Below are positions 3,971-47,380 of a stretch of DNA of 59,173 nt, in pieces. The notes below the pieces were generated by a model. That model saw nothing but the letters and a program-made list of their open reading frames with translations. It did no database searches and was not told the origin of the DNA. Source of the DNA: an uncultured Bdellovibrionales bacterium (GTDB lineage Bacteria > Patescibacteriota > Minisyncoccia > Moranbacterales > DUUL01); the NCBI GenBank assembly GCA_964505305.1, contig CAZDHE010000002.1, forward strand, positions 1 through 59,173, written 5' to 3'. Position numbers and translations under genes: made by a program. How positions within the stretch are numbered: the first letter of the stretch is position 1; the number at the start of each line of letters is the position of its first letter.

Positions 3971-5251
3971 TTAATCAATTCGCTCAATATCCACTCCCAA
4001 ACTTTTCAACCTATTATCGATATCCTCGTATCCCCTGTCAATCTGATAAATGTTATCTATGACCGTCTCCCCCTCGGCAATAATACCGGCAATTACCATA
4101 GTAATTCCGGCTCTCAGGTCCGGACTGGACAATCTTTTTCCATAAAGCTTGGAGGGTCCGGTAATAACCACTCTATGCGGATCGCACATTATGCTTTGAG
4201 CCCCCATAGTAGCCAATTGATCAGTAAAAAAGAGTCTTCCCTCAAAAATGGCTTCATGAATAAGCGAGGTCCCCTCGGCCTGCGTCATCAACAAAGTGTA
4301 AGGAGGTTGTAAATCAGTGGCAAAACCGGGATATTCATGAGTGGTGATAGAAACCGCTTTCAGGCCGGAGTGCTTGCGTGTTTTAATATAATTCTCGCCC
4401 ACCTCCAAGTCGGCTCCGGCTTTTTTAAGAATCGGCAAGACCGCCCCCAAATGTTCCGGATTGCAATCGGTTATTTTTATTTCACTATTAGATGCCAAAC
4501 CCAGCATCACAAAAGTCCCCGTTTCTATTCTATCCGGAATTACTTCAAATTCACCGGCGGATATTTTTTCCACGCCTCTTATTCTCATTACCGGAGTCCC
4601 GGCCCCTTCAATTTGAGCTCCTTGACTATTTAAATAATCCGCTAATACTGAAATCTCCGGCTCCATAGCGCAATTTCTCAACACGGTTTCTCCTTTTGCC
4701 AAAACCGCGGTCATCATCATAGCCTCTGTTCCGGTTACTGAAATTTTGGGGAAAAAGTATTCAGCTCCTGCCAAGAAGCCTTCTTTGCTTTTTAGGTAAA
4801 ACTGGTCTCCACGGGACTCCATTTCCGCTCCCAAGGCCTGAAACCCTTCCAAAAACATATCGATCGGCCTTTTACCGATAACACATCCTCCCGGATGAGT
4901 CATCTTAACCTTGCCAAATCTGGCAAGCAGAGGACCGACCAAAAGAATAGAGGCTCGTAAGCTTCGAGCTAATTTCCCATCCAAGTCAGCTTCTTGTATT
5001 CCCGCCGGATCAACTTCCACTTCCTTTTCATCTTGATTTCTTGTTACTTTTGCTCCCATACTCTCCAAGAGTTCCAACATTCTTTGCGTGTCCTCGATGA
5101 AGGGAAAATTCTTAATTAAACATCTGTCTTTGGATAAAACCAACCCGGCCAGAATCTTTAAAGCCGCATTTTTAGCGCCATTAACCTTTATTTCTCCTCC
5201 GATTTCCTTTTTTCCGATAATTTTAAATTTTTTGTCTAAATTCATTGCCAT
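3971..5251 (-). CDS. murA: UDP-N-acetylglucosamine 1-carboxyvinyltransferase
   Basis: GAKNAAL, LRASILLVGPLLAR, PGGCVIGKRPID (active-site Cys loop), PDRIETGT, PGFATDLQ, DLRAG. Confidence 0.97.
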   Translation of the reverse strand: MAMNLDKKFKIIGKKEIGGEIKVNGAKNAALKILAGLVLSKDRCLIKNFPFIEDTQRMLELLESMGAKVTRNQDEKEVEVDPAGIQEADLDGKLARSLRASILLVGPLLARFGKVKMTHPGGCVIGKRPIDMFLEGFQALGAEMESRGDQFYLKSKEGFLAGAEYFFPKISVTGTEAMMMTAVLAKGETVLRNCAMEPEISVLADYLNSQGAQIEGAGTPVMRIRGVEKISAGEFEVIPDRIETGTFVMLGLASNSEIKITDCNPEHLGAVLPILKKAGADLEVGENYIKTRKHSGLKAVSITTHEYPGFATDLQPPYTLLMTQAEGTSLIHEAIFEGRLFFTDQLATMGAQSIMCDPHRVVITGPSKLYGKRLSSPDLRAGITMVIAGIIAEGETVIDNIYQIDRGYEDIDNRLKSLGVDIERID

Positions 5252-37100: not shown

Positions 37101-37108
37101 GGTTTTGG

Positions 37109-37175
37109 CTTATTAGCTGATTAGCTGATTAGCTGATTAGCTTGTATCTTGTAGCTTATTGGCTGATTAGCTGGT
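37109..37175. repeat. AGCT-core 8-bp tandem repeat in mraZ leader
   Basis: ttagctgattagctgattagctgattagcttgtatcttgtagcttattggctgattagctgg. Confidence 0.8.
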
Positions 37176-37260: not shown

Positions 37261-37289
37261 ATTATATTCCACCAAGCTCCCCTTGTCAA
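37261..37289 (-). promoter_or_regulatory. Consensus sigma-70 promoter of the mraZ operon
   Basis: Minus strand TTGACA-17 nt-TATAAT (ttgaca aggggagcttggtggaa tataat). Confidence 0.85.
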
Positions 37290-37346
37290 ACATTTCCAAC
37301 CCTTTTTAGAATATCAAAAAAACGGCTTAAATAAGCCGTTTTAAAA
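37268..37346. repeat. 79-bp direct repeat copy A (terminator + -35 region), partner at 38420-38498
   Basis: 73/79 identical by manual alignment. Confidence 0.9.
37319..37342 (-). terminator. Intrinsic terminator hairpin
   Basis: aaaacggctta-aa-taagccgtttt perfect stem with T/A tails. Confidence 0.65.
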
Positions 37347-38251: not shown

Positions 38252-38419
38252 AATGCAAATTAATGATAATTTATTATAATTTTAAAAAAATACTAGACTA
38301 TTCGAAAATAAACATTATTTAACGAAACACCTTTCTGTCACCATTTGCAAAAACATTTAGAAAAAATGTCTATCATAAAAGTTGAATTCGCCATTTTTTT
38401 CTTCCTAATTTTAGGATAC

Positions 38420-38498
38420 TCCACCAAGCTCTCCTTGTCAAACATTTCCAACCCTTTTTAGAATATCTAAAAAACAGCTTAAAAAAGAAGTTTTAAAA
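38420..38498. repeat. 79-bp direct repeat copy B, abutting the tRNA-His 3' fragment
   Basis: tccaccaagctctccttgtcaaacatttccaaccctttttagaatatc...; terminator stem mutated; TTGACA-17-TATCCT retained on the minus strand. Confidence 0.9.
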
Positions 38499-40096
38499 TG
38501 GGCGACTAGAGGGGCTTGAACGATGACTTTCCTGTGAGCAGAGAATAAATCCTTAAAATCATCTCTTGGTTCAACGGCTACAACTTTCTTATTTTTTACC
38601 CAAATTCTTTTTATTGTCATTCTTATCCAGTCCCTTTTCTCTTCCTTAGAAAGTTCTTCTCTCCAGAATTTACCAAATTCTTTTAAAAATTTTTCGGTCT
38701 TTTTAATTCTTTGTTCTTGTTCTCTGGCAGTCATACTGCCTGTAACGCCTTTTCTTTCAAAGGATTCTATCTCTTCTTTTGCTTTTTGCATTTTATAAAG
38801 ATATTCGTTTTCTGGTATATGGCCATTTTCAAACATTACTTTCAATCTTTTTTTTCGAGATAAAATATTATGAATCTCTTCATCTGTTTTTTGATTTTTT
38901 GCGTTTTTCTTAAAAAGCTCTCTAAGACTTTCCAGTGTTAATTTTATAACATCCTCTGGCAATTTCATGCCACTCATAAACTGAAAAATTTGTTTATCAA
39001 TAATTTCGCATTCCACCTTAGGTTGCTTACAACTTTTATTCTCTTTCGCAAATTTGCAGGTATAAAAATAATTTTCTTTTCCCGTTTTATTGTTTCTGTG
39101 ATATTCACAATACATTGAGGGATGCATTCTTCTTAAACTACTCTTCTCGTTTCCTTTTAAATGTTTTATGCAATTATAACAATAAACTAAGCCTTGAAGA
39201 AGATAAAAACGATGTTTGGCAACTGGTCTCCCAAACTTTCCCTTTCTCTCCGCTAAAACATCTTGACATTTATCAAAAAGCTTTTTTGAAATGATTGGCT
39301 TATGAACAGTGCTCTTGATATCTGGCAATGGTTTCCTGGGAGACCAAACTAACCCTAGATAAGATTTATTTGGAATAATACATTTGACTGATGAGAAGGT
39401 GAAAGGATTTCCCATTCTTGTTTTATACCCTTCTTTCGTTAATATTTCAGCTATTTTTTGGATAGAGTAATTGCCGGAAGCATACATCTTAAAAATTCTT
39501 CTCACTATCTCTGCTTCCTTTTTATCTATGTGCCATTCTTTTGAATACAAGGGGCGATTTCTTTCATTATCCCACCCAAGCTTTTTTCTTTTATAACCAA
39601 GTGGCAAATTTCCCCCTATTGGTTTCCCTGAGCTTCTTTTTTGCATTAAAGCGCTTTTCACCCAAAAACCAAGCTGTCTTGAATAATATTCATCAAATAA
39701 TTCATTTATTCCCTCATTAAGGAAAGCGGACGGATCATTGAAATCTCCAAAATTCTGAGTTGTTGAAATCACATCAATTCCCTGTTTTTTTCTCAGTAAA
39801 TTTTTGTATTGCCTGGCCTCCTCGACATTTCTTGCAAATCTGGAAGTGTGAAAAACAATAATAACCTCAAACTTTTTTTGCATCGCATCTTCAATCATTA
39901 CCTGAAAATTGTCTCTTTTTGAGGCTATTTTTCCAGAAATTAGGTCTTTGTATATATGCTGGATTTCTATATTGTTTTTCTTGGCATATTCCCTTATTGC
40001 CCTTTCTTGGGCTTGAGGAGAAAACCCCTTGTCTTGCTATTCCGTGCTTTCTCTTATATAGCCAACGCCAATATTTTTTATCTTTTCATCTTTCAT
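38438..40096 (-). pseudogene. Large serine recombinase interrupted by in-frame TAG at codon 20 (40037-40039)
   Basis: MKDEKIKNIGVGYIRESTE*QDKGFSPQAQERAI... continues in frame into ORF 38438-39898 (VFHTSRFARN, GGNLPLGY recombinase domain, LLQGLVYCYNC zinc ribbon, coiled coil). Confidence 0.88.
38501..38513 (-). pseudogene. 3' fragment of host tRNA-His (T-stem 3' strand + acceptor + C73), left junction
   Basis: Minus strand CCCTC-TAGTCGC-C pairs exactly with GAGGG and GGCGACTA of the 5' fragment at 47197-47258. Confidence 0.88.
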
Positions 40097-40221
40097 TTTG
40101 AGGATTTATTAAATAGACTATCTTAATGAAAAAATTTTTAATTAAGATGTGAAGTGTGAAATTCATCAAAAAATCAATAAACATCGCCCTTTGGGGTGAT
40201 TAATCTTGTTTTATTGCTTTA

Positions 40222-40647
40222 TTATAAACCAAGAATCGATTTTTTCTTGGCCTGGAATTCTTCTTCGCTGATAATTTCTTGATCTCTTAGGTCAGCTAGT
40301 TTTTTAATCTCATCAGCGTAATTATTTGTAGATTGTGGTTTTGTTTCATTCGCAACATCTGCTATTTTTTGATCAATTAATTCCTTGGCTTTATCTGCCT
40401 CTTTTTTATTAACAGCTTTAATAATTAAATTTCCGCTTCCTCCCTTATTAACTATTTCAATATCAGCAGTTAAGAAACCTCTTGTAATATTTATTTGAGC
40501 GATATTTTGGTAAAGTAGGTGCATTTTTACCCTTTTCCCTACAACCAATCCTTCTCCATAAACCCCATCCTCCAAAACTTGTAATTCTTGCTTCCAAGTG
40601 TTTGATAATAGTTTACTTCCTTTTACTGTCATTAAAATCTTTGCCAT
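40222..40647 (-). CDS. PH-like domain + C-terminal SHOCT domain protein
   Basis: C-terminal ADEIKKLADLRDQEIISEEEFQAKKKSIL is a SHOCT-type motif. Confidence 0.8.
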   Translation of the reverse strand: MAKILMTVKGSKLLSNTWKQELQVLEDGVYGEGLVVGKRVKMHLLYQNIAQINITRGFLTADIEIVNKGGSGNLIIKAVNKKEADKAKELIDQKIADVANETKPQSTNNYADEIKKLADLRDQEIISEEEFQAKKKSILGL

Positions 40648-40673
40648 ATTTTTTATTAATTGTTAATTTAAAA

Positions 40674-41441
40674 CTAGTTATTTATAATAAGGTTTCTTTT
40701 TATCTCATTAAAGCATTCACTTGGGCTTCTTGGGGGATTTATCGCCTTTTTTTCTTTTTCTGCAAATTTATTATATATTTCTTCAATTTTTTTCTTCTTC
40801 AAATCCAATTTTTTAATAATTTTTTCTATTCTTTCAATTACTCCTGGAGCTAGAAAAGAAAATTCTTGATCAAAGGGCTTCATAATATCATCTTCTAATT
40901 TTACTACGTTCTCAGAATCGTCCAAGGGCATGTTTTGGGGTCCATTCAAATCTAGGTAACATACAGCCAAATAAAAGCCTAAAGCATACTCCAATTTGTT
41001 CTGCCTTCTAAGCATTTCCCCCATCTGAAATCTTGTGTTTCTATATAGTCCCCATTGATGTTTTTTTGCATAATTCAAAATGTCCTCATTCAACAAGCTC
41101 CATTGAACATCAAAATCTGAAATTTTATTTTTGCTTTCTGATTTATTTAATAATTTCTCTTTTCTTTTTCGATACCTTTCCTTTTCTACTAAGTAAGCCT
41201 CTTGTGTACCATTTTTAATTCGCCATTCTTCATCAATTTTATCTGCTTCGCTTTTTGTCACAGTTAACCTGACACCTCTTGTGTTGGTGCGAACATAAAT
41301 ATAGTTATCACAACTTGAGCATTTTGTTTTAGCGCCAGGTTTCTTCTCTAAACATTTCCCACAGTAAGGACACTCAGCTTTTCGCTGATCTTTGCCCCTT
41401 TTTTTAATATTTATGAAATTAAATATTTTCACAATAATCAA
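40674..41441 (-). CDS. Zinc-ribbon (CPYC...CSSC) helical protein of unknown function
   Basis: ECPYCGKCL...TKCSSCDNYIYVR, WGLYRNTRFQM, VCYLDLNGP. Confidence 0.7.
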   Translation of the reverse strand: MIIVKIFNFINIKKRGKDQRKAECPYCGKCLEKKPGAKTKCSSCDNYIYVRTNTRGVRLTVTKSEADKIDEEWRIKNGTQEAYLVEKERYRKRKEKLLNKSESKNKISDFDVQWSLLNEDILNYAKKHQWGLYRNTRFQMGEMLRRQNKLEYALGFYLAVCYLDLNGPQNMPLDDSENVVKLEDDIMKPFDQEFSFLAPGVIERIEKIIKKLDLKKKKIEEIYNKFAEKEKKAINPPRSPSECFNEIKRNLIINN

Positions 41442-41460
41442 TCTGTTTTAATGATTGAGC

Positions 41461-42297
41461 TTATTTAATCGCAGGATGTTCTTGATAGAAGGCTGCCACT
41501 TTTTCCAGATTTTCTCTCAAGAAATTATCCCAATTTATCTCTTTTATATCTTCACTTTTTAAAGAAACTGTTAAAACATTCTCACTAGACTCATTCCCTT
41601 TCACATCAACCAATGGCAGTTCAGCTACTATAGTTACCCGACGGAAATTGTCCAATATTTGATTATTTAAATTGGAAAACACATTTACCATGTCAGTTTT
41701 AATACCACCTGCTGTCATGCCGGAAGTAAAATTTTCGCTAGCACGAAATTTAATCCACAATTCATTCCTCTCTGTTTTTATTGAAATAACAGTTTTTTTA
41801 TCCATATTGTTCTTTTCTCCGATTTGGTTAACGACAACTGTCTCTGCATCTCGTAAAAGAGTGTCCTTTTTTGTTTCCCACTGATAGTTACTCTTTTTTT
41901 CATCTTCTTTCTTATCTGAGGAATCTTCTTCCGTTTTAGTATCCCCAACTTGTTCCTTTTCTTGATTAGTTGCCACATCATTTTGAGGTGGTTCACTATC
42001 ACTATCTAAAACAGCTATGTTTACGATTACAAATATAATTGTAATCGCAATTTTTAATTTCTTATTCCAATTTGTTTTTACCCACATATACCATACTAAA
42101 AAATATGGCAAAAATAAGATGGCAATAACTATGCCCCACCCTGTTTGATACCATTCTTTTTTTTGGCTTTTTTGTGCCTCGCCACTAGGCATTTGTTGAT
42201 CATTCATTTTTTTAAATAAATTGTTAACTAGAATTTTATCGTCCATAGGTACACAAAAGGCCCCACGAATCGACGACAGTCCTTTCGGAATGCCCAA
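41461..42297 (-). CDS. Membrane-anchored secreted-domain protein (start probably 42247 or 42207)
   Basis: Two TM helices shared with 37577-38251, acidic linker, C-terminal globular domain. Confidence 0.75.
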   Translation of the reverse strand: MGIPKGLSSIRGAFCVPMDDKILVNNLFKKMNDQQMPSGEAQKSQKKEWYQTGWGIVIAILFLPYFLVWYMWVKTNWNKKLKIAITIIFVIVNIAVLDSDSEPPQNDVATNQEKEQVGDTKTEEDSSDKKEDEKKSNYQWETKKDTLLRDAETVVVNQIGEKNNMDKKTVISIKTERNELWIKFRASENFTSGMTAGGIKTDMVNVFSNLNNQILDNFRRVTIVAELPLVDVKGNESSENVLTVSLKSEDIKEINWDNFLRENLEKVAAFYQEHPAIK

Positions 42298-42299
42298 TG

Positions 42300-42400
42300 T
42301 CCTTTCAGATCATTGACCTAGCTAACAAGTGTCGACCGCGAGGCCGTCTCTGTTAGCTAGGATTTGATGCCATGCCCACGCAAAAAGCATGAGTTTAGGC
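42300..42400 (-). ncRNA. Candidate structured 5' leader/ncRNA
   Basis: Perfect cctagctaaca/tgttagctagg stem (about 42317-42361) in a GC-rich intergenic patch with GAAA-loop hairpins nearby. Confidence 0.35.
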
Positions 42401-42653
42401 TTTTTTCTATCTTTATTTTAAACCCTTATGGCTAAAAGATCAAGGTTTTAAAAAATTAACAACCTAAACATTGGAAATATTTTTACCCCCCCCTGAAAAT
42501 TATTAACCATTAGATTATTTAGCCGCTCAATGTGTGTAAAAATTTACACACATAATGGCGTAATACTATATTGATATTTCACAAGAACATTCATAATTTT
42601 TCCATATTTTATTAATATAATTCAATCTTGATAAATTTTTATGCAACAAAGAT

Positions 42654-42685
42654 AAGCAAAAGGCGACTGCGGTTGCCTTTTGCTT
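42654..42685 (-). terminator. Intrinsic terminator after the DUF4352-like gene
   Basis: aagcaaaaggcg ... tgccttttgctt stem. Confidence 0.7.
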
Positions 42686-42701
42686 TAAGATTCAAGATGT
42701 T

Positions 42702-43250
42702 TTAGTACAGCTGAATTTCAACATTGTCGCTACTCCAAAAGTCAGGAGTAAATTGTAATTTAAATTTCTCTGAATCTTCAGGCGTTTCAAATGTAACCCA
42801 CCCTCTAACTTTTCCACCAGGATTAAGTGTTCCAGAACTCAGTTCAGGTTCTTTATCTTCCGTCATGCCTTGGTCGAAACTATAACCTTCGCTGTCATAA
42901 AGTTTCCAATCGAAAGGATTGTAGCTTAGTGATTTATCAGAGGTATTGTTCTCGTATTTAACTTCTATAGCCACAAGCTTATTCCCCGCTTCCGGTTGCA
43001 TAAACTCGTTTTTCGCTTTGAACGGGTCTTCCATGTCCGTTACTGTCACTGCATAGTCGCCAAGTTTTATATCCTCGCCCAATTTGAACGTTTTTTGGGC
43101 TTCTTTTTTTTCTTCTTGGGAGGATTTTTTGGATGAAGAGTCATCAACCTTTTCTGGTTGTGTTCCTTGAGGCACACCCGAAGAACCTGTGCATCCTGCC
43201 AGGAAAACAAGTGCAATAAAAAATGCAGACAAAGTTAATGCCTTTTTCAT
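42702..43250 (-). CDS. DUF4352-like lipoprotein
   Basis: Lipobox FLAGC; FKLGE, VAIEVKYENN, FDWKLYDSEGYSF, GTLNPGGKVRGWVTFETP. Confidence 0.85.
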   Translation of the reverse strand: MKKALTLSAFFIALVFLAGCTGSSGVPQGTQPEKVDDSSSKKSSQEEKKEAQKTFKLGEDIKLGDYAVTVTDMEDPFKAKNEFMQPEAGNKLVAIEVKYENNTSDKSLSYNPFDWKLYDSEGYSFDQGMTEDKEPELSSGTLNPGGKVRGWVTFETPEDSEKFKLQFTPDFWSSDNVEIQLY

Positions 43251-43296
43251 ATTATCACCCCCTTTCCACGAAAATTTATTTGCATTAGATGATTAA

Positions 43297-43464
43297 TTAA
43301 TTTAATCTTTCACGTAAATTTTGAGACTCTTGTTGCAACCTCTCACCTCTTTTCTCCATTTTATCTAATTTTTTATCATTTTGCCATATTCTAAACACTC
43401 CAAACAAAAATATCGCAAGCACAACAGAAACAATAACAAGAGCTAACCTGCTAGGTTTTTTCAT
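43297..43464 (-). CDS. 55-aa single-TM + coiled-coil peptide (not in ORF track)
   Basis: Manual translation MKKPSRLALVIVSVVLAIFLFGVFRIWQNDKKLDKMEKRGERLQQESQNLRERLN. Confidence 0.7.
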   Translation of the reverse strand: MKKPSRLALVIVSVVLAIFLFGVFRIWQNDKKLDKMEKRGERLQQESQNLRERLN

Positions 43465-43539
43465 TATTTTTTATTAAAGTTTAAGGTAACCAACTAATTT
43501 CTTTTTTTGACTGAGGAAACAAAAAAGGACAGCCGAGCC

Positions 43540-43652
43540 GTTCACCCACAACAAACTTCGCGAGGAAGTCCAATTATGGAACTCGACTGCCCATTACTAT
43601 CCACAATCGGATAAATAGGCAGTGCCTCGCGAAATCTGAGTTGTAGGTGAAC
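43540..43652 (-). ncRNA. Long multi-stem hairpin starting at a predicted transcription start
   Basis: GTTCACCTACAAC/GTTGTGGGTGAAC, TTCGCGAGG/CCTCGCGAA, ACTGCC/GGCAGT and TATCC/GGATA stems; TATAAT 6 nt upstream (43659-43664). Confidence 0.5.
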
Positions 43653-43843
43653 ATTTAAATTATAACAAAATATATAAAAAAAGCAAAAACAAGAAATTTA
43701 TAAAATGAAAAGGCTTCGTTCTTAATAAACACAAAGTTAGATAAAAAACTGTGATCTTCTTTTTGTCCAACTTATTAGACACATTTTCACGTAATACTTA
43801 AAAAACAAGAGGCATATCAAAATATGTCTTTTTAATAGTGTAA

Positions 43844-44998
43844 TTATAATAACTTTGTTTGCCCAAAAGGCTTCAAAGCAAATTCGGATAAAAAATAATT
43901 ATGTATTTTACTAGCCGTTAAGTTGTTTAATGATGCAAAGTTTATCTGTTTTGCTATTTTATTAATTTCATTTATATGGTTGTAATATGTTTGTCGGCTC
44001 TTGTAGTTATTAAATGAATATTCCTTAAATCCTTTCACCCCGCCTTTTGACTGAATTTTTTCAATAGCATATTTCGCAAGCATCCTTTTATCAATGCGTT
44101 TTATATTTTTATCTAATATTGCTTCTACTAATGGAGAGTTTGAGCTACTTAAAAAAATGAAGTCTTGTAGAGGGTGAACGAAAATTCTTTTAACTTCTTT
44201 TTTTAATAATTCTTTCCAGATTTCATTCTTGAAGATATTTTCAATAGTTACTTCATTGCAATTATAGAGCTTAAGTCTACTCTTAATCGTGCTTTTTCTC
44301 TTCAATGTCAACTCTACTCTTATTAATTCGCATAATAACACCTTATTTTTCTTGTATCTCTCGTTGCTCAAAGATTTAATGACATTCTTTTCCTTTGGAG
44401 TAATTGCATTTGATTTTAACTCCTGTAACTTTGAATAAACCTTAAAAGTCGAAGATTTTGTACTGTAGTATAGCTCAGCTCCTCCGTCTCGGGGCTTTAT
44501 AATATAGCAACTGGATCTAAAACGATCATCAAATTTTGACAATGTATCTATAACTTGTTCACAGCTACAAATTTCTGTGAAGTCTATATTTTTACTAAAA
44601 GCCACCAAGGAAGGTTCGGCATCAAGAATTTCTTTCGAAAAAATCTTTCTTGTACCAATGTCATTTTCTAAGAAAGATTGCATCTTTTCAACAAACGGCA
44701 ACAAGTCACTATCTCGTGGAATTGCAATATTATGACCATATAGAAATTTTGGAACTGAAACTTCTATAAACAATTTTTTGTTTTGAGGATTTAAAAAGTC
44801 TTCTTGAAACCATATTTTTGGTGTATATATTCCTCTCTTTTTCCTCTCTTTTCTCCAGTTATTTGCTGTATAGACATATCTAGAGCTTCCTTTGTCAACA
44901 GGGCTATTTATTAATTCTTTATACTTAATTTTTTCTGAAAAAAATTCCTGGGCTTTTCTATCAAACTTTATATTTAATGCAAATTTCACAGTATCCAT
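43844..44998 (-). CDS. Putative rolling-circle replication initiator (Rep_trans / phage gpII-X-like)
   Basis: MDTVK start, IEVSVPKFLYGHN, ELYYSTKSSTFKVYSKLQE and IRVELTLK resemble motifs of this superfamily; recognition only. Confidence 0.55.
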   Translation of the reverse strand: MDTVKFALNIKFDRKAQEFFSEKIKYKELINSPVDKGSSRYVYTANNWRKERKKRGIYTPKIWFQEDFLNPQNKKLFIEVSVPKFLYGHNIAIPRDSDLLPFVEKMQSFLENDIGTRKIFSKEILDAEPSLVAFSKNIDFTEICSCEQVIDTLSKFDDRFRSSCYIIKPRDGGAELYYSTKSSTFKVYSKLQELKSNAITPKEKNVIKSLSNERYKKNKVLLCELIRVELTLKRKSTIKSRLKLYNCNEVTIENIFKNEIWKELLKKEVKRIFVHPLQDFIFLSSSNSPLVEAILDKNIKRIDKRMLAKYAIEKIQSKGGVKGFKEYSFNNYKSRQTYYNHINEINKIAKQINFASLNNLTASKIHNYFLSEFALKPFGQTKLL

Positions 44999-45019
44999 AG
45001 AGGAGTTTTGAAGAAGAAG

Positions 45020-45220
45020 CTAAGTCATTGCCCTAGGTTCTCGGGAAAACTCCTCAGAAAACCCTTTCCTAGGGCAATGGCTTTGCTCTTCCTTGGTTAA
45101 TGGATTATTTTCAAAGTGTCTGTTATTCCAAAATTCAAAGAAAAATCCGGCTAATTGTTCTGCAACCGCTTTATTTTGTTTATCAGTGATTTTTGGATTC
45201 TTATTATTAGTCATTTTCAA
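45020..45220 (-). CDS. Small hypothetical protein upstream of Rep
   Basis: 66-aa ORF in operon-like position; function unknown. Confidence 0.55.
   Translation of the reverse strand: MKMTNNKNPKITDKQNKAVAEQLAGFFFEFWNNRHFENNPLTKEEQSHCPRKGFSEEFSREPRAMT
45026..45079. repeat. Perfect 12-bp inverted repeat upstream of rep
   Basis: cattgccctagg (45026-45037) / cctagggcaatg (45068-45079). Confidence 0.8.
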
Positions 45221-45228
45221 TTAAAAAA

Positions 45229-45249
45229 ACTGCAAATTATATTTGCAGT
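45229..45249. promoter_or_regulatory. Palindromic operator candidate
   Basis: actgcaaat-tat-atttgcagt directly upstream of the small ORF/rep unit. Confidence 0.5.
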
Positions 45250-45292
45250 CTAAGATAATTAAAAATAACGTGATATTACCAATAAAGAATCC

Positions 45293-46054
45293 TTATATGT
45301 CAGTGATTCGTTTTTTAATTCTGTTCAGGATTATACCGATATCATCGTATAATAATGCTTTCCCTTTAAATTCTTCATTTATCTTTTTTGCTATCTCAGA
45401 ATAAGACAGTCCCTTTTCTCGTAAATCATAAATTCTTAAATCCCTATTGAAGTTTGTTTTAGGTTTATTTCTTCCTTCTTTGTAATTCATCGTCCTTTTC
45501 TTATATCGTTTTATTAAAGGCCATACATTCTCTATATCCTTTATCGTTGTGTTACTAAAAACCTCTAAAAAGAGTCTGTAAGTTTTTTTATCTTCTTTAT
45601 CTCTTTCAAACCAAAATCCAACATTATCTCTTGGAATGTAAACTAATGTGTTGTTTGTAAGATATAGCATTACTGTTTTGTGGTAGTGCTGAGAAATGCT
45701 ATATTTTTTCATTATTTCATCAATTTCACTATAAAACTTATTTAAGGGTGTTTTCTGATCTAATTTTGTAAGTTTGCTTTTACAGCTATCATAGGTCTTG
45801 TAATCCTTGCTCTTTTTTGCTTGTTCAATCTTTTTAAGCAGAGTTCTTCTATTGTCATTATAATCTTTACTTGCTATAAACTTATCAGTTTCCCTTCCGA
45901 GCCAATGCCACCATCCCTCTACTTCTTCATCCTTCAAGCCCTCATCTCCAATAAGCCATTTTTTACGAAAAGAGAGCGCTTCGTCTTGGAAGGATTTTTT
46001 TCTTATCAACAATTCAAATTTTTGCCTATTAAAACTCGAGGAATTATTTTTCAT
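45293..46054 (-). CDS. Protein with C-terminal helix-turn-helix (element regulator candidate)
   Basis: RDLRIYDLREKGLSYSEIAKKINEEF...IGIILNRIKKRI. Confidence 0.65.
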   Translation of the reverse strand: MKNNSSSFNRQKFELLIRKKSFQDEALSFRKKWLIGDEGLKDEEVEGWWHWLGRETDKFIASKDYNDNRRTLLKKIEQAKKSKDYKTYDSCKSKLTKLDQKTPLNKFYSEIDEIMKKYSISQHYHKTVMLYLTNNTLVYIPRDNVGFWFERDKEDKKTYRLFLEVFSNTTIKDIENVWPLIKRYKKRTMNYKEGRNKPKTNFNRDLRIYDLREKGLSYSEIAKKINEEFKGKALLYDDIGIILNRIKKRITDI

Positions 46055-46117
46055 TTTTTTAAATATTTACTAAAAAAGAACTGCAAAAACAGTTCTTTAA
46101 GCTGAAATCTGCAGAGG

Positions 46118-46189
46118 GGCGAGTAAAGGGAATTGAACCCTTATGTCCGGTGCCACAAACCGGTGTTCTACCATTGAACTATACTCGCC
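46118..46189 (-). tRNA. tRNA-His(GTG), intact, element-borne
   Basis: G-1:C73, GCGAGTA/TACTCGC acceptor, CCGGT-TTGTGGC-ACCGG anticodon arm, AAGGG-TTCAATT-CCCTT T-arm. Confidence 0.95.
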
Positions 46190-46256
46190 CCACTATAGAC
46201 TTCCACGAGATAATTAACGAAAATTAAAGATAAATTATATCATATAAACAATTATA

Positions 46257-47066
46257 TTACAATAGTTTGTTGTAATCATACTGAACATCTTTTGGTGCAA
46301 ATATAATGCCAAAGCCATTTACCCTCCCTCCCTTATTGTCTCTAATGTTATCTTTAATAACGTCATAATATTTCTTATTATCTTTTTTAAAATATTCTCT
46401 TACTGCTCCAGTTGTGAAATCCGCTACTTGCAAGAGTTCGCAATATTTAGCATGAGTGTAAAATAAAGTCTCACGCAAACAATGTCTTAACTCAATTTTT
46501 TTCCAATCCTTTCCTTCAATGTATATATCTTCAAAATCATCACTATACATATGACCTTTTTTCCATAAATCGTTATAAGTTTTTGCAAGATTCACCTTTT
46601 TTTTAGGTCCAAGATAATCTATTATCATTTGTCCATGAGGATAATATCCTTGTTTTGTTGCATTAAAACCAACTTTCCCTGACAAGAAAAAAACAAATCT
46701 TTCAGCTAACCTAGAAAGTGCGAAACACTGAGAATTCCAATAATTATCATCGTTTCTTATTACTGAACAAATTATTGTTGTTTCATATTCCTTCAATAGA
46801 TTAAGAACTTCTTCTCGCAATTTGTTTCTTTTAGCAGGAGGGAGGGCATATTGTTCAGGACATTCTCTTTTTGTTGGAGACCATTTTATATAAGCATCTT
46901 CATTTCCTAATATATCCTGTTTTATTTTTTTTAATTCAAGTTGAAAATTTGCCTCCCTCATTCCATTTTTTATAATAAATCCGCCTAGATAACAAGGATT
47001 CTCATTGGTTCCAGAATCATCTAGATAAAAAACAAATCTTTCAGGCACTTTATTTTCAGTCAACAT
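46257..47066 (-). CDS. DUF3800-like (RNase H-like fold) protein
   Basis: FYLDDSG N-terminal motif and LLQVADF C-terminal motif. Confidence 0.75.
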   Translation of the reverse strand: MLTENKVPERFVFYLDDSGTNENPCYLGGFIIKNGMREANFQLELKKIKQDILGNEDAYIKWSPTKRECPEQYALPPAKRNKLREEVLNLLKEYETTIICSVIRNDDNYWNSQCFALSRLAERFVFFLSGKVGFNATKQGYYPHGQMIIDYLGPKKKVNLAKTYNDLWKKGHMYSDDFEDIYIEGKDWKKIELRHCLRETLFYTHAKYCELLQVADFTTGAVREYFKKDNKKYYDVIKDNIRDNKGGRVNGFGIIFAPKDVQYDYNKLL

Positions 47067-47196
47067 TATAAAATTACAATTTAGTATGTAAAATCATTTC
47101 AACGCAGAATTATGAGATTGATGCACCTTATAATGATCACATCCCAATAATTTTATTCTTTTCCATATCTTGTAGCTAGGAAAGTCATTGTCTTGG

Positions 47197-47258
47197 GGGA
47201 ATTGAACCCTCATATCCGGTGCCACAAACCGGTGTTCTACCATTGAACTATAGTCGCC
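47197..47258 (-). pseudogene. 5' fragment of host tRNA-His(GTG), right junction
   Basis: GGCGACTATAGTTCAATGGTAGAACACCGGTTTGTGGCACCGGATATGAGGGTTCAATTCCC then diverges (CCAAGAC); no acceptor 3' strand locally. Confidence 0.9.
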
Positions 47259-47364: not shown

Positions 47365-47380
47365 AACTATAGTCGCCATA
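47365..47380. repeat. 16-bp direct repeat of the tRNA-His 5' end
   Basis: aactatagtcgccata, identical to 47246-47261. Confidence 0.8.

Follow-up and report, generated by a model that had tools for sequence, protein, structure and literature searches.

An integrated element within a host tRNA-His gene

The DNA analysed here (hereafter, the window) is a 59,173-nt stretch from an uncultured Bdellovibrionales bacterium (GCA_964505305.1, contig CAZDHE010000002.1, positions 1–59,173, forward strand), whose GTDB lineage belongs to the CPR (Bacteria; Patescibacteriota; Minisyncoccia; Moranbacterales; DUUL01). It contains an 8.7-kb mobile element, at about 38512–47196, that splits a host tRNA-His gene and carries a spare copy. 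One boundary is marked by the 5′ 62 nt of the host gene (47197–47258(−)), the other by its 3′ 11 nt (TCTAGTCGCCC; 38501–38511(−)), which lie within the 3′ end of the recombinase ORF. Once joined, the two halves give a valid tRNA-His. These halves bound a real element inserted in the T-arm, and the 8.7-kb unit of the original prediction is thereby borne out. The intact, element-borne tRNA-His(GUG) (46116–46188(−)) is the sole complete tRNA-His in the assembly. After the split-tRNA test we dropped two earlier ideas, that the tRNA-His near rep was the host gene and that the recombinase C-terminus was decayed; this C-terminus is altered because attP sits inside the recombinase gene. In same-genus genomes host homology ends at ~37380, and a search of them for an empty attachment site gave none that was usable. 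As tRNA-His and mraZ are not neighbours in those genomes, no clean attB comparison was available. A Magasanikbacteria locus (L002) has the same architecture as the window element.

Inside the element, a DUF3800 gene (46257–47066(−)) is followed by the intact tRNA-His and by a 253-aa gene (45293–46054(−)) that always lies between the element tRNA-His and rep. The 253-aa product shows weak C-terminal HTH hints; searches with it turned up neither a family match nor any homologue, and none of its fold matches was convincing. A terminator-like hairpin (45227–45251(−)) ends this gene upstream of rep (43844–44998(−)). The cargo (40222–43464(−)) encodes a 55-aa TM ORF, a DUF4352 lipoprotein, a 278-aa membrane protein, a 255-aa zinc-ribbon protein and a bPH/SHOCT protein. 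A LOOT RNA (Rfam RF03000; 42275–42401(−); 67.7 bits, gathering score 46.4) heads the cargo gene at 41461–42297.

The large serine recombinase gene (38438–40096(−)) encodes Resolvase, Recombinase and Zn-ribbon domains and has an in-frame TAG (40037–40039) at codon 20. The stop closely follows the catalytic Ser (YIRESTE*Q), at a position that is Glu in an intact relative. Because of this nonsense codon, the window copy is probably stranded and dead as a mobile unit. The assembly held no episomal copy, the fetched contigs of homologous loci had no terminal overlaps, and neither a free plasmid nor a phage relative was found in IMG/VR, PLSDB or INPHARED. That an 8.7-kb circle is excised today, as was originally proposed, is doubtful given the integrase nonsense codon and the lack of an episomal copy in the assembly.

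Sequence and predicted fold of the Rep protein

The rep gene (ATG start, TAA stop) encodes a 384-aa protein (P0001). The motifs first noticed in the sequence (S.PK..YGHN, YY...FKVYSK..E and R.E) were all confirmed in the ORF, as S81-V-P-K-F-L-Y-G-H-N90, Y177-Y178-STKSST-F-K-V-Y188-S-K190-LQ-E193 and R227-V-E229; Y58, S81, Y188 and E229 are invariant across 100 relatives. Rep matched phrog_702 'replication protein' (E 2e-7). It had no Pfam match at E ≤ 0.1 and no NCBIfam match, and fell below the gathering thresholds of PF02486 and PF05144. Among the relatives, PF05144 (G2P N-terminal) is the only Pfam family matched repeatedly (10 of the 15 close and 32 of the 100 wider relatives, with Rep_trans matched by 2), and these matches are weak (best 7.7e-9). 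Using hhalign, Y188 falls on Tyr197 of M13 gpII and R227-x-E229 on its R-F-E, at a low probability (4%) with a single-sequence template. The same method gave no signal against pT181 RepC, and PDB sequence searches with the protein and with profiles returned nothing.

The AF2 model of Rep (pLDDT 94.1, pTM 0.91) was compared with solved structures. The top PDB matches in Foldseek were exclusively the Rep_trans initiators 4cij, 4cwe and 4cwc (probability ~1, E ~1e-3), in line with the fold relationship to initiators on which the original prediction depended. In VIA-align, 4cij_A (Z 8.8 over 209 aligned residues) and 4cwc_A (Z 8.6 over 222) stood ahead of the next match at 6.2. The two best solved folds are RepSTK1 and RepDE. 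The modelled catalytic domain has the two five-strand, TBP-like modules of this fold, and TBP itself ranks lower in the VIA-align list; TM-scores against the solved Reps are modest (0.3–0.4). In BFVD, Inoviridae G2P was among the top matches.

RepDE carries the motif R189-x-Y191-x-K193-x-x-E196 (PMC4797284), which K186-x-Y188-x-K190-x-x-E193 of the window Rep fits, making Y188 the candidate catalytic Tyr. D2, E79 and E229, the candidate acidic ligands of the metal ion, are conserved residues of strands 3–8, 74–81 and 225–232. RepC/RepD of the pT181 family and RepSTK1 (4cwc, 4cij; PMC4797284) are the best structural matches over the catalytic domain, and these initiators share with the CPR Rep an [R/K]-x-Y-x-K-x-x-E strand motif, conserved acidic residues on separate strands (candidate metal ligands in the CPR Rep) and a gene that adjoins a hairpin-containing non-coding site. 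In contrast, the CPR Rep has ~10–14% identity to them, no PF02486 match and an extra helical C-terminal domain of ~110 aa, and it is encoded by an integrated element with a serine recombinase and not by a free plasmid. Taken together, Foldseek, VIA-align, the PF05144-matching relatives and the alignment at Y188 bear out the proposed Rep-type identity: judged by sequence and model, the ORF is very probably a rolling-circle-type initiator or relaxase of the Rep_trans/filamentous-phage gpII superfamily. By sequence it is placed in a CPR-specific clade outside Pfam coverage, and replication and nicking are its predicted functions.

The likeness to M13/f1 gpII (PF05144) extends to size (384 against 410 aa), and a gpII-like Rep whose best viral structural matches are Inoviridae could belong to a defective filamentous prophage or to a satellite borrowing helper-phage virions. 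Inoviruses with serine recombinases are known (PMC6813254), and the element has several small TM ORFs. However, the Zot/pI morphogenesis ATPase (PF05707) is absent from the 88%-complete genome searched with profiles and from the eight largest ORFs of the element, and annotation of those eight ORFs with Pfam and PHROGs brought up no coat or secretin gene. Unlike M13/f1, the element also shows no evident nested gene X start, and IMG/VR and INPHARED held no match. A phage origin of this kind is therefore highly improbable.

Rep is commonly paired with a large serine recombinase

Rep was present in 40 of the 401 sampled Patescibacteria genomes (~10%), and in 17 of 20 extended loci a large serine recombinase lies ≤10 kb from it. 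The pairing, at first regarded as unusual, is the rule in this CPR family. It also has precedents outside the CPR, in streptococcal IMEs (PMC5357655), in AICEs such as pSAM2 (PMC2440964) and in integrative inoviruses. Our literature search found no account of this CPR element family. Like the CPR elements, IMEs with RCR-type relaxases and AICEs are small, are integrated in tRNA genes and combine an RCR-initiator-like protein, a site-specific recombinase and cargo. They mostly use tyrosine integrases and TcpA/FtsK-type coupling proteins, whereas in the CPR elements the integrase is a large serine recombinase with attP in the 3′ end of its own gene, and these elements have a replacement tRNA, a LOOT RNA and no transfer genes.

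These precedents raise the alternative that Rep is chiefly a MobT-like relaxase for transfer of the excised element, as in Tn916/ICESt3 and streptococcal IMEs, and not a vegetative initiator. Integrated elements are known with a Rep_trans protein as their relaxase, grouped with excisionase and integrase in a compact module (PMC5357655), and distant CPR loci have the gene order Rep, HTH (excisionase-like), recombinase. We consider a chiefly transfer-related role unlikely, as no coupling protein was found, either as PF02534 in the genome or as FtsK/TcpA-like genes among the Pfam/PHROGs annotations of the element. The one AAA_10 (VirB4-like) match, located elsewhere in the genome, is weak, at 35.9 bits. 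The two roles could coexist, given that ICE relaxases also drive rolling-circle replication.

The inverted repeat upstream of rep is a probable mRNA leader

A perfect 12-bp inverted repeat, CATTGCCCTAGG (45026–45037) and CCTAGGGCAATG (45069–45080), lies 28–82 bp upstream of the rep start. The repeat had been noted from the sequence, and proves to be the core of longer arms of 27 nt. The resulting stem, S1 (45011–45094(−); arms 45011–45037 and 45068–45094), is 81% complementary and encloses a 30-nt loop. Within the loop, the SD-like GAGGAGUUUU (S2a; 45046–45055(−)) is perfectly complementary to AAAACUCCUC (S2b; 45000–45009(−)), which ends 1 nt before the rep AUG. A promoter-like site, TTGGAA-16-AATAAT (45104–45131(−)), would place the 5′ end of the rep mRNA at the foot of S1; it is a consensus match only, and promoter calls in the window are at chance level.

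The S1 hairpin exceeds what chance would produce, with a fold z-score of −3.25 as RNA and −4.43 as DNA. An S1-type hairpin occurs at the same position before the homologous rep in nine other loci, with compensatory changes in 23 of the 29 S1 pairs and many G-U pairs on the sense strand. Across loci the sense fold beats the antisense fold by 4.7 kcal/mol on average; for the window's own leader this order is reversed by a small margin (antisense −42.5, sense −39.7). S2 comprises 9–13 contiguous pairs ending 1–4 nt before the AUG in all ten loci, in eight sequence variants (shuffle frequencies per locus, 0 to 0.07). A covariance model of the leader found nothing beyond its ten training loci, the more distant Rep loci included.

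The repeat had been proposed as either a nick site or a translational control hairpin. The second role fits better and the first does not hold up well, because S2 locks the repeat to the AUG and because G-U pairs are tolerated on the sense strand. On this comparative evidence the repeat probably acts as a leader of the rep mRNA, and we infer translational control through S1 and S2. As a double-strand origin, the repeat would be extruded by Rep as a cruciform and nicked in its loop, as by RepC at pT181 IR-II, a rep-sense hairpin situated near the 5′ end of repC, inside the gene. A strong, conserved hairpin adjoining rep is what such an origin would look like, but many pairs are G-U on one strand only and would be A-C mismatches in the other arm of the cruciform, the link to the AUG holds at 10 of 10 loci, the loop lacks a T-AATA-like nick motif and the repeat was not found in distant family members; this reading is decidedly unlikely.

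Single-strand (lagging-strand) origins, such as the ssoA elements of RCR plasmids and the f1 minus-strand origin, are long and imperfect, as is the repeat, which by this analogy might fold only in displaced rep-sense ssDNA and recruit RNA polymerase or primase. Sense-strand-specific pairing would agree with this, in that an ssDNA hairpin of the sense strand would give equal G-T tolerance. Yet pairing with the 10 nt ahead of the rep start codon at every locus would serve no purpose in an sso, and the rep-sense strand would have to be the displaced one, so we regard a single-strand origin as very unlikely.

In IncI-alpha and IncB plasmids, the loop of an upstream hairpin in the repZ/repA leader pairs beside the rep start codon, forming a pseudoknot that is blocked by antisense RNA. 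The CPR leader has no sequence relation to these leaders; by analogy, Rep translation would depend on leader folding in both. It also differs from the antisense-driven attenuator of pT181.

A repeated module 3′ of rep is a candidate Rep target

The sequence AGTATTACG occurs exactly twice in the 59 kb of the window, both times on the rep strand (chance expectation 0.12), and each copy is followed by a short hairpin. Module 1 (43765–43798(−)), located 46–80 nt 3′ of rep, consists of AGTATTACG (43790–43798), 8 nt and the hairpin GTGTCTAAT..TTGGACA, and is a candidate Rep target or double-strand origin. Module 2 (42531–42567(−)), a divergent second copy in the same orientation, consists of AGTATTACG (42559–42567), 7 nt and the hairpin GTGTGTAAA..TTTACACAC. 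The two bracket a cargo cassette made up of the 55-aa ORF and the DUF4352 gene. Each of 11 close loci has one module per element, with a tandem duplication in L004, and the module alignment is gapless across ten loci. The module was not found beside rep in L002 or in distant loci. Relative to rep, the module points one way in some subgroups and the other way in others, an argument for a DNA site and against an RNA element. An initial nick-site candidate, GTCTTTTTAATAGTG (43826–43840), just past the rep stop, was rejected, being not conserved in other loci. The nick motif of M13/f1, CTTT/AATAG, is likewise not conserved, though the loop of the window's hairpin reads GTCTAATAAG.

Sequence conservation makes the module a better origin candidate than the upstream inverted repeat, and it may be the Rep nick site, an assignment to which we give slightly less than even chances. 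A possible but rather doubtful alternative is that the modules are operators through which an element-encoded regulator controls cargo promoters. The hairpin is a near-palindrome with two 7-bp half-sites, and the neighbouring 253-aa gene with its weak HTH hints could supply the regulator. In the window and in L001, whose flanks were read, the module precedes the cargo promoter, lying 40–130 nt upstream of a promoter-like site that is followed by cargo behind a structured leader, either LOOT or some other hairpin; LOOT is also found 3′ of the module in L003 and L004. Against an operator, the module of the L005–L011 subgroup is inverted, lies between rep and a small ORF and has no promoter after it, the best-conserved part is the non-palindromic AGTATTACG, and the duplication in L004 is a possible product of faulty rolling-circle termination.

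More speculatively, the modules could be nick and termination sites of Rep, a proposal we consider a long shot. With the two in direct orientation, initiation at one and termination at the other would allow cargo cassettes led by a promoter to be excised, captured or exchanged by Rep. If true, CPR bacteria would possess a cassette system resembling integrons or IS91 and driven by a Rep_trans enzyme, with the LOOT RNA and the rep leader as its structured control elements.

Proposed mechanism and implications

The best overall explanation, which we favour with some reservation, is that Rep is a tyrosine nicking enzyme serving as the replication or DNA-processing gene of an integrated element, with S1/S2 as its leader and the module as its target. 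The large serine recombinase would have put the element into the T-arm of tRNA-His, with the element bringing an intact tRNA-His. After excision, a conserved site on one strand of the circle would be nicked by Rep, which would remain attached via Y188, and host polymerase and helicase would copy the circle by the rolling-circle route. The inverted repeat would serve as stem S1 of the rep mRNA leader and not as the nick site, with GAGGAGUUUU in its loop pairing with AAAACUCCUC directly 5′ of the AUG; AGTATTACG and the short hairpin 3′ of rep would be the more likely target. SD-like sequences precede 3 of the 37 long ORFs of the window. Translation in the host begins mostly on open A/U-rich leaders that lack Shine-Dalgarno sequences, and S1/S2 therefore most likely holds Rep synthesis low or switchable, resembling the leader pseudoknots and antisense targets that set plasmid copy number.

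For this one locus the analysis yields less: it upholds the identification as Rep, gives the hairpin a different role and points to an element that has probably lost its mobility. More broadly, the conserved rep leader offers a compact case of putative translational gating where Shine-Dalgarno initiation is largely missing, and the repeated module and the LOOT RNA are testable cis-elements for an orphan Rfam family. To our knowledge, almost no plasmids or genetic tools have been described for CPR/Patescibacteria; with a defined origin and a defined integrase/att pair, these uncultured bacteria would gain a natural system for shuttling and integrating DNA.

Rep is a predicted rolling-circle initiator

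The rep gene (43844..44998, minus strand) encodes a 384-aa protein with the three motif groups named in the original prediction, here S81-VPKFLYGHN, Y177-Y178-STKSSTFKV-Y188-SKLQ-E193 and R227-V-E229. The protein itself had no Pfam or NCBIfam match, and it matched phrog_702 ('replication protein') in PHROGs (E 2e-7, residues 51-355). PF05144 (filamentous-phage G2P, N-terminal domain) was matched by 10 of its 15 close homologues (38-61% identity, one in a Moraniibacteriota MAG). A profile search against 1.84 billion representatives returned 770 clusters of relatives. Among 100 diverse members PF05144 was detected in 32 and Rep_trans in 2; only Y58, S81, Y188 and E229 were invariant in the alignment, with D2, P60, P83, K84, K190, R227 and G320 near-invariant. 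Rep represents a clade outside present Pfam coverage.

The AlphaFold2 model obtained from the Rep-family alignment (pLDDT 94.1, pTM 0.91) had credible matches among solved structures only to the Rep_trans initiators RepSTK1 and RepDE. Both were returned at a probability of ~1 by Foldseek, one of the checks proposed with the original prediction, and their VIA-align Z scores were 8.8 and 8.6, with the next fold at 6.2. In a viral structure library, predicted inovirus G2P proteins ranked at the top. A low-probability hhalign alignment (single-sequence template) to residues 135-410 of M13 gpII placed Y188 on residue 197, which we take to be the tyrosine that links to DNA, and R227-x-E229 on R-F-E. 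The Rep_trans active site comprises R189-x-Y191-x-K193-x-x-E196 and three carboxylates on separate strands (Carr et al., PMC4797284); the CPR protein reads K186-x-Y188-x-K190-x-x-E193, and its conserved residues D2, E79 and E229 each fall on a different strand. Given the PHROGs match, the PF05144-matching relatives, the Rep_trans fold matches and the active-site pattern, the earlier Rep assignment is upheld, and the protein is very probably a nicking initiator or relaxase of the rolling-circle type, with nicking itself predicted.

A conserved hairpin and a second pairing precede rep

The perfect 12-bp inverted repeat reported upstream of rep was confirmed at 45026-45037 / 45069-45080, 28-82 bp before the start, and folds far better than shuffles (z -3.25 as RNA, -4.43 as DNA). 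It is the core of 27-nt arms around a 30-nt loop (stem S1). Nine further loci, with Reps 28-44% identical to that of the window, have an equivalent hairpin immediately 5' of rep, and RNAalifold recovered 29 S1 pairs, 23 of them with double compensatory changes. Many pairs on the sense strand are G-U, and the sense strand folds better than the antisense by 4.7 kcal/mol on average, the window itself excepted. Within the S1 loop of the window, GAGGAGUUUU is perfectly complementary to AAAACUCCUC, whose end is one base before the AUG. This second pairing (S2) is found in 10 of 10 loci (9-13 bp, ending 1-4 nt before the AUG) in eight sequence versions, with shuffle frequencies of 0 to 0.07 per locus. 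With a spacer of just 1-10 nt following S1, S2 is incompatible with the full S1 stem; from this geometry we infer either a switch between S1 and S2 or a pseudoknot formed with a shortened S1.

Start sites in the host genome are A/U-rich and open, so sequestering the start of rep within S2 should have an effect. Shine-Dalgarno (SD) sites are rarely used in this host, and SD-like sequences precede 3 of 37 long ORFs in the window. All three of these ORFs fall in a higher-GC block (49.3-54.1 kb), which suggests acquisition of this block from an SD-using donor. By consensus match only, a promoter-like site (45131-45104, minus strand) would place the transcription start at the base of S1, and the upstream gene would end at a terminator (45251-45227, minus strand). 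The leader is confined to the window subfamily and one further locus, L029.

The original prediction had left the repeat as either a nick site or a translational control hairpin. The S1 covariation and the presence of S2 in all ten loci argue for translational control and against the nick site, and on these sequence patterns the repeat is reasonably likely to act in the mRNA, as a leader gating Rep translation. Compared with such a leader, a DNA nick site is improbable, and a single-strand origin more improbable still.

A module downstream of rep is a candidate Rep target

A conserved sequence with a hairpin (the module; 43765..43798, minus strand) was found 46-80 nt past the rep stop. Its ungapped consensus over ten loci is G(T/C)CTAA-N4-(A/T)TAGACAC-N8-GTAATACT, and the window copy reads AGTATTACG-N8-GTGTCTAAT..TTGGACA on the rep-sense strand. 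nhmmer detected a single module per element in 11 close loci, two tandem copies in L004, and none in the distant loci or L002. It is inverted relative to rep in the L005-L011 subgroup. The window holds a divergent second copy (42531-42567; hairpin GTGTGTAAA..TTTACACAC), and the two copies flank a 55-aa ORF and a DUF4352 gene. AGTATTACG occurs exactly twice in the 59 kb, both times on the rep strand (expected 0.12). Public database entries for pT181 and M13 both show an origin hairpin of 7-8 bp, on the rep-sense strand, whose loop contains CT(C/T)TAATAG; the loop of the window hairpin is GTCTAATAAG. We tentatively propose this module as the Rep target, and it is more likely than the leader hairpin to be the nick site. 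The main rival reading, in which the module serves the cargo promoters as an operator, is somewhat less likely.

The tandem copies in L004 (2059-2128, unit ~34 nt) could be a scar of faulty rolling-circle termination, or of slippage. The orphan Rfam family LOOT (RF03000) was detected in the window (42275-42401, minus strand) and in 5 of 12 related loci scanned (L001 6757-6881; L003 1240-1360; L004 2192-2316; L010 1290-1414, minus; L050 6490-6614, minus). Its usual place is at the head of cargo genes, immediately following the AGTATTACG module and a promoter-like site, and in L010 it is inverted together with the module.

The element splits a tRNA-His gene

The element spans ~38512-47196 and divides the host tRNA-His into a 5' part of 62 nt (47197-47258) and TCTAGTCGCCC (38501-38511); when rejoined, the T and acceptor stems are intact. 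The element-borne tRNA-His (46116-46188) is the only complete one in the 88%-complete assembly. The Magasanikbacteria locus L002 has the same design, in the order 60-nt tRNA-His 5' fragment, intact tRNA-His, unknown ORF, Rep, cargo and large serine recombinase, the last codons of which overlap the tRNA 3' fragment. Additional short tRNA-His fragments lie upstream of the split 5' half in the window (47365-47380) and in L002 (7422-7440 and 7474-7506), which suggests that integration had occurred there repeatedly before.

Homology of the host sequence with two same-genus genomes ends at ~37380, upstream of mraZ. An 83-nt direct repeat (92% identical; 37264-37346 and 38416-38498) covers the terminator and mraZ-promoter region; the copy that precedes mraZ is kept in the same-genus genomes, and the other one adjoins the tRNA 3' fragment. 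Between the copies is a gene for a 224-aa membrane protein with an N-terminus like that of the element cargo gene at 41461-42297. Directly upstream of the mraZ start, 8-nt tandem repeats (GATTAGCT, 37103-37173) may be MraZ operator repeats.

The window recombinase has one nonsense codon (40037-40039) and no frameshift, reading YIRESTE-TAG-QDKGFSP versus YIRESTEEQDKGFSP in L002. Because of this codon, the window element has probably lost self-excision and would be stranded. Rep is present in a single copy in the assembly, in which no episomal contig was found.

Rep and a serine recombinase mark a widespread CPR element family

Rep relatives (E <= 1e-10) were detected in 40 of 401 sampled Patescibacteria genomes, corresponding to 37 of 320 genera; the copy number was single in all but one, and several of the positive genomes are closed chromosomes. 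When 20 loci were extended to +/-10 kb, 17 had a large serine recombinase near rep, typically on the same strand and immediately downstream. Distant loci that were examined typically have a small excisionase-like HTH gene, the recombinase, or both after rep. L047, from another CPR genome, also has a group I intron (4182-4462; RF00028, 81 bits) near a Rep/recombinase locus.

The pairing had been considered an unusual combination, a view contradicted by these counts and by literature precedents: streptococcal IMEs, in which RCR-initiator-like 'relaxases' accompany integrases (PMC5357655), AICEs, with an RCR-initiator-like protein and an integrase (PMC2440964), and inoviruses with serine recombinases (PMC6813254). 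Inoviruses differ in having a Zot/pI gene and IMEs in having a coupling protein; neither was found in the window element or in the 88%-complete assembly. None of the literature we searched describes this CPR family. Rep together with a large serine recombinase is the signature of a widespread family of CPR elements.
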